Shown: one piece after another, positions 25,632 through 28,250 of the stretch | How the letters are laid out: every line of letters starts with the position of its first letter | Numbering within the stretch: the stretch's first letter is position 1 | Source: Escherichia coli | GTDB lineage: Bacteria > Pseudomonadota > Gammaproteobacteria > Enterobacterales > Enterobacteriaceae | NCBI RefSeq assembly: GCF_003334765.1 | Contig: NZ_QOWT01000013.1 | Direction: 5' to 3' (one strand) | Length of the DNA stretch: 64,000 bases | Translations under genes and position numbers: made by a program | The notes under the pieces: generated by a model | Databases searched by the model: none | Told to the model about the DNA's origin: nothing | What the model saw: only the letters and a program-made list of their open reading frames with translations

Positions 25632-26078
25632 ATGCGTACCGTTTTGAACATTCTGAACTTTGTGCTTGGCGGATTTGCCACCACTCTGGGCTGGCTGTTG
25701 GCGACTCTGGTCAGTATTGTGCTGATTTTTACCTTACCGCTGACACGATCCTGCTGGGAGATCACTAAACTGTCTCTGGTGCCTTATGGCAATGAAGCTA
25801 TTCATGTCGATGAACTGAACCCGGCTGGCAAAAATGTGCTGCTGAATACTGGCGGTACGGTATTGAATATTTTCTGGCTGATTTTCTTTGGCTGGTGGTT
25901 ATGCCTGATGCACATTGCAACGGGCATCGCACAATGTATTTCAATCATTGGCATTCCTGTCGGCATTGCGAACTTTAAAATTGCCGCTATTGCACTATGG
26001 CCGGTTGGTCGTCGCGTGGTATCGGTAGAAACAGCGCAAGCTGCGCGTGAAGCCAATGCACGTCGTCGTTTTGAATAA
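25632..26078 (+). CDS. yccF: YccF inner-membrane protein (DUF307)
   Basis: ORF track 25632..26078, 148 aa, hydrophobic. Confidence 0.85.
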   Translation: MRTVLNILNFVLGGFATTLGWLLATLVSIVLIFTLPLTRSCWEITKLSLVPYGNEAIHVDELNPAGKNVLLNTGGTVLNIFWLIFFGWWLCLMHIATGIAQCISIIGIPVGIANFKIAAIALWPVGRRVVSVETAQAAREANARRRFE

Positions 26079-26087
26079 TCCACTAAT

Positions 26088-28250
26088 ATGGCCTTTATGC
26101 TAAGTCCTTTGCTCAAACGCTATACCTGGAACAGCGCCTGGCTGTATTACGCGCGTATTTTTATTGCGCTTTGTGGAACCACAGCGTTTCCGTGGTGGCT
26201 GGGTGATGTAAAACTGACGATTCCGCTAACGCTGGGGATGGTGGCAGCGGCGCTGACCGATCTCGATGACCGACTGGCGGGACGTTTGCGTAACCTCATC
26301 ATTACGCTGTTCTGCTTTTTTATCGCCTCGGCCTCAGTAGAATTGCTGTTTCCCTGGCCCTGGCTATTTGCGATTGGCTTAACGCTCTCTACCAGCGGCT
26401 TCATTTTGCTCGGCGGTCTGGGTCAACGCTATGCAACAATTGCCTTCGGTGCATTGCTGATCGCCATTTACACTATGTTGGGAACATCACTGTATGAGCA
26501 CTGGTATCAGCAGCCGATGTATCTGCTGGCCGGTGCCGTCTGGTACAACGTCCTGACACTTATTGGTCATCTGCTGTTCCCGGTCCGCCCGCTGCAGGAC
26601 AACCTGGCGCGTTGCTATGAACAACTGGCGCGTTATCTTGAGCTCAAGTCGCGCATGTTTGATCCTGATATTGAAGATCAAAGCCATGCACCGCTGTACG
26701 ATTTGGCTCTCGCCAACGGTCTGCTGATGGCGACATTGAATCAGACGAAACTCTCGCTGCTGACCCGCTTACGTGGCGATCGTGGTCAACGGGGAACGCG
26801 TCGCACGCTGCATTATTACTTTGTCGCACAGGATATTCACGAGCGTGCCAGCTCTTCTCATATTCAGTATCAAACATTGCGTGAACATTTTCGCCACAGC
26901 GACGTGCTGTTCCGTTTTCAGCGGCTGATGTCGATGCAGGGCCAGGCGTGCCAGCAACTGTCACGCTGTATTTTGTTGCGTCAGCCTTATCAACATGATC
27001 CGCATTTTGAGCGCGCTTTTACGCATATTGATGCTGCGCTGGAGCGGATGCGCGATAACGGCGCACCCGCCGATTTACTCAAAACACTGGGATTTTTGCT
27101 GAACAATTTACGCGCCATTGATGCCCAACTGGCAACAATTGAATCAGAACAGGCCCAGGCACTACCCCATAATAATGACGAAAATGAGCTCGCTGATGAC
27201 AGCCCGCACGGGTTGAGTGATATCTGGCTGCGTCTTAGCCGTCACTTCACGCCGGAATCCGCCCTCTTCCGTCATGCGGTAAGAATGTCGCTGGTGTTGT
27301 GCTTCGGCTACGCCATCATTCAGATAACCGGAATGCATCACGGGTATTGGATCTTGCTGACAAGTTTGTTTGTCTGCCAGCCAAACTATAACGCCACGCG
27401 CCACCGCCTGAAGTTAAGGATTATTGGTACGCTGGTAGGTATCGCCATTGGCATTCCTGTGCTGTGGTTTGTGCCATCACTGGAAGGGCAGCTGGTGCTG
27501 CTGGTTATTACCGGCGTGCTCTTTTTTGCCTTCCGTAACGTGCAATACGCTCATGCAACGATGTTCATCACACTTTTGGTGCTACTGTGTTTTAACTTAC
27601 TGGGTGAAGGTTTTGAAGTAGCGTTACCTCGCGTAATCGATACGCTGATTGGTTGTGCCATTGCGTGGGCGGCAGTGAGCTACATCTGGCCTGACTGGCA
27701 GTTTCGCAATCTGCCGCGCATGCTCGAACGCGCCACAGAGGCCAACTGTCGGTATCTCGATGCCATACTGGAGCAATACCATCAGGGGCGTGATAACCGT
27801 CTGGCGTATCGTATTGCCCGCCGCGATGCACACAACCGTGATGCTGAGCTGGCGTCGGTGGTATCAAATATGTCCAGCGAGCCGAACGTTACCCCGCAAA
27901 TTCGCGAAGCCGCGTTTCGGTTGCTGTGCCTTAACCATACGTTTACCAGCTATATCTCAGCCCTCGGTGCTCACCGGGAGCAGTTAACTAATCCTGAAAT
28001 TCTGGCGTTTCTTGATGACGCAGTTTGCTATGTTGATGACGCGTTACATCATCAACCTGCTGATGAAGAACGCGTCAATGAGGCATTAGCTAGCCTGAAA
28101 CAGCGGATGCAGCAACTTGAACCACGGGCAGACAGCAAAGAACCTCTGGTCGTACAACAAGTTGGATTATTGATTGCATTACTGCCTGAGATTGGTCGTC
28201 TGCAACGCCAGATTACTCAAGTTCCGCAGGAAACTCCTGTTTCGGCGTAA
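26088..28250 (+). CDS. yccS: YccS putative inner-membrane transporter (FUSC-like)
   Basis: ORF track 26088..28250, 720 aa; alternative ATG at 26097 would give 717 aa; N- and central hydrophobic blocks. Confidence 0.85.
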   Translation: MAFMLSPLLKRYTWNSAWLYYARIFIALCGTTAFPWWLGDVKLTIPLTLGMVAAALTDLDDRLAGRLRNLIITLFCFFIASASVELLFPWPWLFAIGLTLSTSGFILLGGLGQRYATIAFGALLIAIYTMLGTSLYEHWYQQPMYLLAGAVWYNVLTLIGHLLFPVRPLQDNLARCYEQLARYLELKSRMFDPDIEDQSHAPLYDLALANGLLMATLNQTKLSLLTRLRGDRGQRGTRRTLHYYFVAQDIHERASSSHIQYQTLREHFRHSDVLFRFQRLMSMQGQACQQLSRCILLRQPYQHDPHFERAFTHIDAALERMRDNGAPADLLKTLGFLLNNLRAIDAQLATIESEQAQALPHNNDENELADDSPHGLSDIWLRLSRHFTPESALFRHAVRMSLVLCFGYAIIQITGMHHGYWILLTSLFVCQPNYNATRHRLKLRIIGTLVGIAIGIPVLWFVPSLEGQLVLLVITGVLFFAFRNVQYAHATMFITLLVLLCFNLLGEGFEVALPRVIDTLIGCAIAWAAVSYIWPDWQFRNLPRMLERATEANCRYLDAILEQYHQGRDNRLAYRIARRDAHNRDAELASVVSNMSSEPNVTPQIREAAFRLLCLNHTFTSYISALGAHREQLTNPEILAFLDDAVCYVDDALHHQPADEERVNEALASLKQRMQQLEPRADSKEPLVVQQVGLLIALLPEIGRLQRQITQVPQETPVSA

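Follow-up and report, generated by a model that had tools for sequence, protein, structure and literature searches.

Plant ALMTs are eukaryotic, half-size proteins that assemble as homodimers and are gated by malate, Al3+ and voltage; the dimer has one electropositive pore, in which W90 has a gating role (PMC8890709). A bacterial FUSC protein with an ALMT-like structure, Rv2571c ('AKGC') of M. tuberculosis, has an essential arginine in TM6 and has been implicated in the export of a TCA-cycle dicarboxylate, alpha-ketoglutarate (preprint 10.64898/2026.03.10.710584).

AaeB (YhcP) and MdtO belong to the same Pfam superfamily, FUSC, as E. coli YccS. Their genes are encoded with those of membrane-fusion proteins (AaeA, MdtN) and of small or outer-membrane partners, and AaeB, which confers p-hydroxybenzoate efflux, is described as an efflux pump that acts with a membrane-fusion protein and not as a channel. 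The FUSC/ArAE family of YccS is TCDB 2.A.85, which is classed as exporters. YhfK, the E. coli paralogue of YccS, is a protein of 700 aa with the same double layout of six TM helices plus a soluble domain; the two are 24-26% identical over more than 600 residues, and their common invariant motifs include YWIL.T, R..R...R..GT, PR.IDT.IGC and WP.WQ. The patent literature reportedly claims glutamate export for YhfK. Its gene differs from yccS in context, being located downstream of crp and not beside sxy, with no YccF-family gene within 4 kb at any of 69 loci.

Here we describe the yccF-yccS pair of one window, that is, the whole stretch of 64,000 nucleotides that was analysed, which is E. coli chromosomal DNA. 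In our best explanation, to which we assign a probability of roughly 0.6, this is the known yccF-yccS operon, YccF is a helix bundle, and YccS is a single-chain, ALMT-like pore for organic-anion efflux.

The yccF-yccS locus in E. coli

The pair is that catalogued previously for E. coli as yccF-yccS; the locus is ordinary, so that no new discovery lies in finding it. RefSeq annotates the two genes, with identical coordinates, as 'YccF domain-containing protein' and 'YccS family putative transporter', and the genes are arranged as follows.

23455..25509, minus strand: helD, divergent from yccF (RefSeq)
25632..26078, plus strand: yccF coding sequence, 148 aa (open reading frame listing and RefSeq)
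26088..28250, plus strand: yccS coding sequence as annotated, 720 aa (open reading frame listing and RefSeq)
28213..28842, minus strand: sxy (tfoX), convergent with yccS (RefSeq)
28213..28250, no strand assigned: 3' overlap of the convergent yccS and sxy genes, 38 nt (open reading frame listing and RefSeq)

An earlier note on this DNA had described two open reading frames, of 148 and about 720 aa, that are divergent from helD and do not constitute a novel locus; the open reading frame listing and RefSeq agree with this description, and the catalogued genes are present in every complete E. coli genome. Because the region was found at a coverage of at least 80% in 5426 of 5426 such genomes, yccF and yccS are true members of the core gene set rather than chance open reading frames. 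Readings of the genes as pseudogenes or chance frames were ruled out by this conservation, which also includes Enterobacteriaceae species. Both helD and sxy were kept at 79 of the 80 Enterobacteriaceae loci, and a cross-genus comparison gave a genus-dependent overlap between yccS and sxy of -13 to +117 nt. An Rfam search of positions 25000-29500 returned no match.

Conservation of the annotated yccS start, ATG 26088, is limited to Escherichia and some members of Citrobacter, and ATG 26097 is conserved across Enterobacteriaceae genera. Use of the cross-genus conserved codon would therefore give a YccS of 717 aa and an intercistronic gap of 18 nt. The 9-nt gap given previously is thus correct for the annotated ATG but not for the conserved one; across species, the spacing is usually 16-18 nt. 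The translation signals and the spacer are located as follows.

25624..25627, plus strand: Shine-Dalgarno sequence GAGG of yccF (duplex energy with the 16S 3' end)
26079..26096, plus strand: intercistronic spacer with neither a Shine-Dalgarno sequence nor a terminator; 9 nt to 26088 and 18 nt to 26097

The ribosome-binding site of yccF is strong, whereas a Shine-Dalgarno sequence is missing in front of yccS, as indicated by duplex energies with the 16S 3' end of -8.5 kcal/mol for yccF and of -1.5 and +0.4 kcal/mol for the two candidate yccS starts. YccS synthesis may rely on ribosomes coming from yccF, or it may be intrinsically very low. A terminator scan found zero terminator-like sites in the spacer 26079-26096, consistent with the earlier view that the pair lacks an internal terminator, and the six terminator-like matches across the region are at chance level (4.4 expected).

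YccS is predicted to be a fused double FUSC protein

Profile comparison places YccS clearly in the YccS/YhfK branch of the FUSC/ArAE superfamily. The protein covered the whole of the TIGR01666 (YccS family; 1260.5 bits, cut-off 470.75) and TIGR01667 (YccS-YhfK family; 1163.7 bits, cut-off 467.8) models and matched the Pfam domains FUSC-like (4e-113; residues 69-348 in the 720-residue numbering), FUSC_2 (8.6e-29) and FUSC (6.8e-10). The AF2 model, whose confidence is moderate (pLDDT 76, pTM 0.61) and whose input alignment was shallow and covered two clades, contains twice a set of six TM helices followed by six to seven cytosolic helices. YccS is accordingly modelled as a fused double FUSC protein, with two units that each comprise six TM helices and a cytosolic helical domain, as listed below in the 717-residue numbering.

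26133..26576, plus strand: N-half TM block of six helices, residues 13-160 (hydropathy, AF2)
26589..27161, plus strand: N-half cytosolic helical domain, residues 165-355 (AF2, Pfam FUSC-like)
27261..27683, plus strand: C-half TM block of six helices, residues 389-529, carrying W418, R437, R441 and R512
27711..28217, plus strand: C-half cytosolic helical domain, residues 539-707 (AF2)

Hydropathy and AF2 placed the two hydrophobic blocks at residues 13-160 and 389-529, which bears out the earlier description of two such blocks separated by a soluble region. The relation between the N-half and the C-half was weak in hhalign (E=9e-4, probability 23%).

A Foldseek search of the PDB with YccS returned ALMT1 or ALMT9 for all of the top seven matches, each with a probability of 1.00; the target-normalised TM-scores of the ALMT matches were 0.42-0.64 over approximately 380 columns, with 0.58-0.64 for 7vq3, 8hiw and 7vq7. 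The ALMT protomer (AtALMT1, 7vq3; GmALMT12/QUAC1, 7w6k; AtALMT9, 8hiw) superposes on about half of YccS, and one FUSC unit of YccS folds, in the model, like such a protomer. When the YccS/YhfK profile was compared with the PDB, only ALMTs were found (7w6k, E=3.3e-4; 7vq3; 9jtw; 8hiw), and W418, R437, R441 and R512 in the YccS C-half aligned with the GmALMT12 pore residues W90, K109, R113 and R198. These four residues are invariant over the YccS and YhfK clades, and the C-half accordingly keeps the pore tryptophan of TM2 and the basic residues of TM3 and TM6. No significant match was obtained between YccS and the Pfam ALMT family PF11744 (E=0.13) or between the single YccS sequence and the PDB (E=0.14), and the N-half profile gave only chance matches in the PDB, with no sequence-level link to ALMT. 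YccS differs from the half-size, homodimeric ALMTs in joining two units covalently, with an N-half that has diverged strongly. Rv2571c is likewise half-size (approximately 355 residues scanned) and a predicted homodimer, and it lacks the TM3 arginine that YccS keeps as R441.

Sequence similarity to the AaeB and MdtO permeases is marginal; residues 404-558 of YccS matched the NCBIfam MdtO efflux permease model weakly (E=2e-5). In contrast to those systems, the yccFS locus has no membrane-fusion partner (AaeA/MdtN type) or outer-membrane factor gene near yccS, the neighbours being helD, yccF and sxy. The earlier note had considered both to be inner-membrane proteins that are under-described and of no established function. 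This still holds for location and for function, and for YccS the literature searches returned only screen listings and no report on substrate, transport or conductance, but YccS does have a family, FUSC/ArAE, and an ALMT-like predicted fold.

YccF is predicted to be a two-repeat membrane bundle

YccF of the window is the type member of the PF03733/NF008739 family (298.3 bits against the NF008739 cut-off of 213) and contains two repeats of PF03733, formerly DUF307, at residues 4-53 (25641-25790) and 77-127 (25860-26012), which match each other with E=2e-4. In the AF2 model (pLDDT 94.7, pTM 0.85), each repeat combines a long TM helix with a second, shorter helix and a short strand, and a basic C-terminal helix follows the repeats. 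We are confident in the resulting prediction that YccF is a four-helix, two-repeat inner-membrane bundle with both termini in the cytoplasm, in keeping with its earlier description as a DUF307-like inner-membrane protein. A C-terminal GFP fusion of YccF fluoresces at the membrane, which implies a cytoplasmic C-terminus, and its localisation is YidC-dependent (PMC3225971). A structure search of AFDB50 with YccF returned members of the YccF family only and no characterised relative. The family comprises 2259 clusters across bacteria, and in its long fusion proteins the parts beyond the YccF domain are no more than a zinc ribbon or low-complexity tails, neither of which offers a functional clue.

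The pair forms an operon of one lineage

The proposal that yccF and yccS form a two-gene operon is supported. The genes are on the same strand, with a short spacer, no intervening terminator and a single promoter-like element upstream, and a yccFS transcription unit convergent with sxy was plotted from RNA-seq data by Conway et al. 2014 (PMC4161252). Among 80 Enterobacteriaceae species, 76 have yccF immediately before yccS, as do 10 of 11 metagenomic YccS loci, and the pair was also found, in the arrangement mgsA-yccF-yccS, in a lineage whose YccF is 59% identical. The genome-collection scan with YccS reached Enterobacteriaceae only, and the metagenome scan with YccS and YhfK gave only close orthologues of one or the other; the check for YccF neighbours from the YccS side is therefore confined to the YccS and YhfK clades. 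In Superficieibacter, yccS is retained and yccF is absent at the same locus. In one lineage, yccS is fragmented and a yccF call remains, whose product aligns with the query over residues 46-139 alone.

From the YccF side, homologues were mostly stand-alone with variable neighbours, and none of the seven loci with a YccF of at most 54% identity had a FUSC neighbour; several YccF representatives were on contigs too short for the context analysis. Co-conservation thus holds among the Enterobacteriaceae, but not among the distant YccF homologues or in the YhfK clade, so that the lack of co-conservation which the earlier note would have counted against the pair applies in part. Because the two families are not co-conserved outside Enterobacterales, yccFS is an operon of one lineage and not a universal two-component module. 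The YccF-YccS pairing is, as judged from gene neighbourhoods, specific to Enterobacterales, and YccF would hence be no more than an accessory partner within this lineage, and not a subunit that the YccS family requires.

Possible functions of YccS and YccF

From the model and from homology, we propose that YccS would form an ALMT-type pore inside one chain, as a pseudo-dimer, through which an organic anion, with a carboxylate or dicarboxylate metabolite as the most plausible candidate, would exit the cell down the inside-negative membrane potential. Several observations count against a channel, namely that the N-half has no sequence-level ALMT link and only a weak relation to the C-half, that the AF2 model is moderately confident with a pTM of 0.61, and that AaeB, a characterised E. 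coli relative, is described as a pump. YccS might instead be a proton-coupled secondary efflux pump of the ArAE type that, like AaeB, exports aromatic or toxic carboxylic acids and is not a passive channel. The FUSC, FUSC_2 and FUSC-like domains and the weak MdtO match are consistent with such a pump, as are the exporter class of the family (2.A.85) and the p-hydroxybenzoate efflux conferred by AaeB. However, the solved structural relatives of YccS are channels only, the half-size Rv2571c has also been interpreted as a channel, and no membrane-fusion or outer-membrane factor gene is nearby; in addition, sequence cannot reveal energy coupling. We therefore regard a pump as unlikely and favour the ALMT-like pore.

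The part played by YccF can be read in two ways. The genes may be functionally unrelated, with the shared transcript reflecting Enterobacterales genomic history and YccF acting autonomously, for example as a small pathway for ions or solutes or in the homeostasis of the membrane; we give this somewhat less than an even chance. It is consistent with the widespread stand-alone occurrence of YccF, with the Superficieibacter locus, at which yccF loss was possible without yccS loss, and with the remaining, partially matching yccF call beside a fragmented yccS, but it does not sit easily with the adjacency, spacing and orientation kept in approximately 80 species under purifying selection, or with the fact that yccS has no ribosome-binding site to itself, which is typical of functionally linked cistrons. 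In the other reading, YccF would bind YccS as an accessory subunit with a regulatory or stabilising role, so that the operon would encode one two-component transporter. In favour of this, the genes are tightly adjacent in 76 of 80 species and co-transcribed (PMC4161252), both proteins would be made together, yccS being devoid of a Shine-Dalgarno sequence, and the pair is retained even where YccF identity is 59%. Nevertheless, members of the large YccF family were mostly without a FUSC neighbour, the YhfK paralogue has no YccF partner at its 69 loci, and Superficieibacter has yccS without yccF at this locus, and a subunit role for YccF is accordingly doubtful. A still more specific proposal, that YccS is an asymmetric ('pseudo-heterodimeric') single-chain ALMT serving as an overflow valve for a dicarboxylate (alpha-ketoglutarate, malate or succinate), with YccF taken on in Enterobacterales as a subunit that gates or stabilises this channel, is speculative and in our view quite improbable.

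If YccF were truly a gating or stabilising subunit of YccS, this would be the first functional assignment for the widespread PF03733 family. The value of the locus is that it makes two under-studied families accessible in the tractable E. coli, namely the double-length FUSC proteins (YccS-YhfK) and PF03733/YccF, and the fold predicted for YccS-YhfK ties them to plant ALMTs and to a mycobacterial channel recently linked to metabolite export and drug resistance. The predictions concerning the pore residues W418, R441 and R512, the possible translational coupling and the lineage-restricted pairing are testable in this model organism.

The helD-yccF intergenic region

The helD-yccF intergenic region is 122 nt long and was compared among 75 Enterobacteriaceae intergenic regions, in which two conserved elements were found.

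25565..25573, no strand assigned: conserved block GTGCTCCAG, with the core GCTCCAG in 75 of 75 regions
25587..25592, plus strand: TACAAT, putative sigma-70 -10 hexamer for transcription of yccFS; all 75 species carry it (one as TACTAT)

The distance from the GCTCCAG core to the -10 hexamer is fixed at 19-20 nt, and that from the hexamer to the yccF ATG is usually 37-39 nt. The conserved TACAAT element, identified by comparison, is likely to be the yccFS promoter; a consensus promoter scan missed it because the -35 is poor. The scan and the intergenic comparison together gave a single conserved promoter-like element before yccF and zero before yccS. We infer that the block GTGCTCCAG overlaps the -35 positions of both divergent promoters.

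Two candidate regulators were rejected. The palindrome TACTG-N7-CAGTA upstream of yccF has the wrong spacing for a LexA box and is restricted to Escherichia, and the lack of SOS induction of yccF (PMC11002266) also counts against such a box. For FNR, the ChIP site is inside helD and the effect of an fnr deletion was marginal (PMC1802558). The measured activity of the yccFS promoter fragment is weak, with approximately 175-210 units compared with a background of 30-45 (PMC1802558).

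The locus and its gene calls

The locus belongs to the E. coli chromosome and is known and annotated rather than novel: a 3-kb query matched all complete E. coli genomes (5426/5426) at ≥80% coverage, and 3575 records matched it at ≥99% identity. To this known locus we add a conserved start codon, a conserved promoter block and a lineage limit to the gene pairing, and to its known proteins a confident YccF fold and an explicit, proposed reading of YccS as being of the type of the plant anion channels (ALMTs), with named pore residues. These additions leave the locus non-novel, but a well-defined experimental target. 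RefSeq annotation of an identical strain, with which the mechanical ORF list was concordant, gives the following genes.

23455-25509, minus strand, helD
25632-26078, plus strand, yccF (148 aa)
26088-28250, plus strand, yccS (720 aa)
28213-28842, minus strand, sxy/tfoX

YccF contains two PF03733 repeats (residues 4-53 and 77-127) and scored 298 bits against the NF008739 equivalog model (cut-off 213), while YccS scored 1260 bits against TIGR01666 and carries the Pfam domains FUSC-like, FUSC_2 and FUSC. Since the ORF list, the RefSeq annotation and the family models agree, and hydropathy concurs, the coordinates, sizes, hydrophobic layout and divergence from helD described in an earlier note on this DNA were borne out; its description was accurate, and the locus is, as it held, already known.

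The yccS start is a different matter. Among 80 Enterobacteriaceae species retrieved by YccS alignment, the RefSeq start, ATG 26088 (M-A-F-M...), was limited to Escherichia and some Citrobacter, and Salmonella has ATA at the matching position. ATG 26097 (MLSPLL...) was found wherever it could be checked across the genera; because this codon, and not 26088, is common to them, the true product is probably 717 aa, the numbering used below. The 9-nt gap reported earlier therefore holds for the annotated start and not for the conserved one, which lies 18 nt after the yccF stop in E. coli and 16-18 nt after it in 32 of 34 other genera measured. The two genes are close-packed with either start. E. fergusonii gene calls (737 aa) begin yccS further upstream still, within yccF.

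Transcription and translation signals

The region is a worked example in Conway et al. 2014 (PMC4161252), and the yccFS transcription unit plotted there, the short spacer and a conserved upstream -10 uphold the proposal of a two-gene operon. Terminator-like hairpins were at chance level in a scan of the region, with none in the yccF-yccS spacer, in agreement with the claim that no terminator separates the genes. A consensus scan of the region found no sigma-70 site. In an alignment of the helD-yccF intergenic region from 75 species (121-132 nt), a GCTCCAG block (25567-25573) was invariant (75/75), followed at a fixed distance by the hexamer TACAAT (25587-25592; once TACTAT), which as a rule lies 37-39 nt upstream of the yccF ATG. 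We read this hexamer as the putative yccFS -10, which the scan missed because its -35 is poor; weak promoter activity of a helD-yccF fragment (Grainger et al., PMC1802558) fits such a -35. For helD, TACACT (25549-25544, minus strand) with a 17-nt spacer would place the -35 on the same invariant block. The arrangement thus looks like back-to-back, divergent promoters with one common -35 region. As the invariance of GCTCCAG exceeds what a poor -35 needs, a regulator site there is possible. Within 25543-25592, TACAAT on the plus strand and TA(C/A)ACT on the minus strand flank the block, each about 13-17 nt away.

Translation signals differ between the genes: yccF is preceded by a good Shine-Dalgarno sequence (GAGG, with a duplex energy of -8.5 kcal/mol), whereas none was found at either candidate yccS start (-1.5 and +0.4 kcal/mol), and in other genera that of yccS is weak (median -4.0 kcal/mol). 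This contrast suggests that YccS translation is coupled to yccF or that YccS synthesis is intrinsically low.

Several features of the flanks were also recorded. Just 5' of the yccF Shine-Dalgarno sequence, the palindrome TACTG-N7-CAGTA (25603-25619), confined to Escherichia in the intergenic alignment, has LexA-like half sites at the wrong spacing; yccF is among listed SOS genes, yet without induction (PMC11002266). The FNR ChIP-chip site named 'yccF/helD' (AGTAATTGATTGAAAGGAATAAGG, 25379-25402; PMC1802558) falls within the coding region of helD rather than between helD and yccF, and fnr deletion had little effect on either promoter (PMC1802558). Downstream, yccS and sxy overlap tail-to-tail by 38 nt (28213-28250; -13 to +117 nt among genera), and the hairpin scan gave no terminator-like site after yccS, so that read-through from yccFS would be antisense to sxy.

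Conservation of the gene pair

In 76 of the 80 species, yccF lies directly upstream of yccS on the same strand. The four exceptions are two Superficieibacter without yccF, a Kluyvera whose yccF is interrupted and one frameshifted assembly. In Superficieibacter electus and Superficieibacter sp. 1612_C1 (comparison loci L063:3751-8133 and L079:3727-8133), yccS comes next after helD, about 198 nt away; both also carry about 2.3 kb of extra DNA between yccS and sxy. yccF was present in 10/11 metagenomic YccS-clade loci, and the order mgsA-yccF-yccS was found in a lineage with a 59%-identical YccF. Beyond this range the pairing fails. The YccF family comprises 2259 clusters at 50% identity (E≤1e-3), and homologues at 35-54% identity (Veronia, Psychrosphaera, Cupriavidus, Thiomicrolovo and three metagenomic contigs) had no co-directional FUSC neighbour; no YccF-family ORF lay within 4 kb of any of 69 loci of the clade of YhfK, the E. 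coli paralogue of YccS. Neighbourhood conservation thus stands within Enterobacteriaceae and not for these homologues or the YhfK clade: by gene order, the yccF-yccS operon belongs to one lineage and is no universal module.

In a frequently sampled lineage (84 collection blocks; L175:4001-6306, L176:3632-5475), csgI-mgsA-helD-yccF-yccS-tfoX-ompA synteny is intact, and yccS, split into four ORFs (96, 84, 189 and 238 aa), is apparently a pseudogene; YccF of this lineage aligns to query residues 46-139 only.

Each paralogue adjoins one partner in CRP-S promoter control, yccS-sxy (26088-28842) and crp-yhfK (L092:2121-4894, a comparison locus): yccS adjoins sxy in 79/80 species, and yhfK immediately follows crp in 61/69 loci. 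These adjacencies may be coincidence. A record under the title 'Chryseobacterium sp. 18061' (L051, CACSKA010000002.1) also contains a helD-yccF-yccS locus of Enterobacteriaceae type, whose YccS shares 81% identity with the E. coli protein; in the sequences compared, its helD-yccF and yccF-yccS junctions match those of 'Citrobacter sp. 18056' (L054) exactly or almost exactly, and mislabelling or contamination of the assembly is probable.

YccS resembles plant anion channels

An AF2 model of YccS, with 51 YccS and YhfK sequences as input (pLDDT 76, pTM 0.61), agreed with hydropathy on the following layout.

Residues 13-160, TM block 1, six TM helices
Residues 165-355, soluble domain 1, seven helices
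Residues 389-529, TM block 2, six TM helices
Residues 539-707, soluble domain 2, six helices

The top seven Foldseek matches of this model in the PDB were all plant ALMTs (7vq3, 9jtw, 8zte, 8hiw, 7vq7, 8ztm and 8zvf; probability 1.00, about 380 columns), with target-normalised TM-scores of 0.42-0.64, the best (0.58-0.64) for 7vq3, 8hiw and 7vq7; in these alignments one ALMT protomer corresponds to each YccS half. A YccS/YhfK profile likewise retrieved only ALMTs from the PDB sequences (7w6k, E=3.3e-4; 7vq3, 9jtw and 8hiw, E≤0.017), and aligned the invariant W418, R437, R441 and R512 of YccS with W90, K109, R113 and R198 of GmALMT12. The paper on the ALMT12 structure (PMC8890709) gives W90 as the 'toggle' tryptophan of the gate and places K109 and R113 along the pore; from its alignment position, we take R198 to be the arginine in TM6 to which malate coordination is attributed in ALMTs. 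The N-half of YccS is much more diverged than the C-half: its profile did not find ALMTs, and hhalign matched the halves at E=9e-4 (probability 23%).

ALMTs are homodimers with a single central electropositive pore (PMC8890709), and in M. tuberculosis the half-size FUSC protein Rv2571c resembles ALMTs, has been implicated in the export of alpha-ketoglutarate and tolerates no mutation of its TM6 arginine (2026 preprint, 10.64898/2026.03.10.710584). On the strength of these parallels, the fold and profile matches and the pore residues, we infer that YccS is probably a covalently fused, asymmetric version of the ALMT/FUSC-type dimer. It would then be a putative organic-anion (carboxylate) efflux channel, with efflux powered by the membrane potential. 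A proton-coupled pump of the AaeB kind is a live rival to this fused-dimer channel.

Structure and possible role of YccF

The AF2 model of YccF was very confident (pLDDT 94.7, pTM 0.85), with each element below occurring once per repeat.

Residues 2-30 and 69-101, long TM helices
Residues 32-49 and 108-122, shorter helices
Residues 54-58 and 127-131, short strands

An arginine-rich C-terminal helix follows the second repeat, and similarity between the repeats is detectable (E=2e-4). Because the periplasmic turns are very short and both ends carry basic residues, the simplest topology has four membrane helices and both termini inside; fluorescence of a C-terminal GFP fusion is consistent with an inside C-terminus, and YccF localisation is YidC-dependent (PMC3225971). 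Positions that hardly vary in the family include N6 and N79, where the long helices begin, a G-I-P turn and P-F/Y-G ahead of each strand. We found no solved structure specifically like YccF, and an AFDB50 search returned family members only. Nor did we find a publication assigning YccF a function, in line with the earlier note, which held that neither protein has an established one, and the domain fusions of YccF were uninformative in this respect. With low confidence, we suggest two options: in Enterobacterales YccF may assist YccS as an auxiliary partner, or it may be a small membrane device that acts on its own. AFDB entry A0A0A2WE75 (792 aa, 'Inner membrane protein yccS [Beauveria bassiana D1-5]') contains an 87%-identical YccF (TM-score 0.96); rather than a natural fusion, it most likely reflects contamination of a fungal assembly by bacterial DNA, together with a gene call that fused yccF and yccS.
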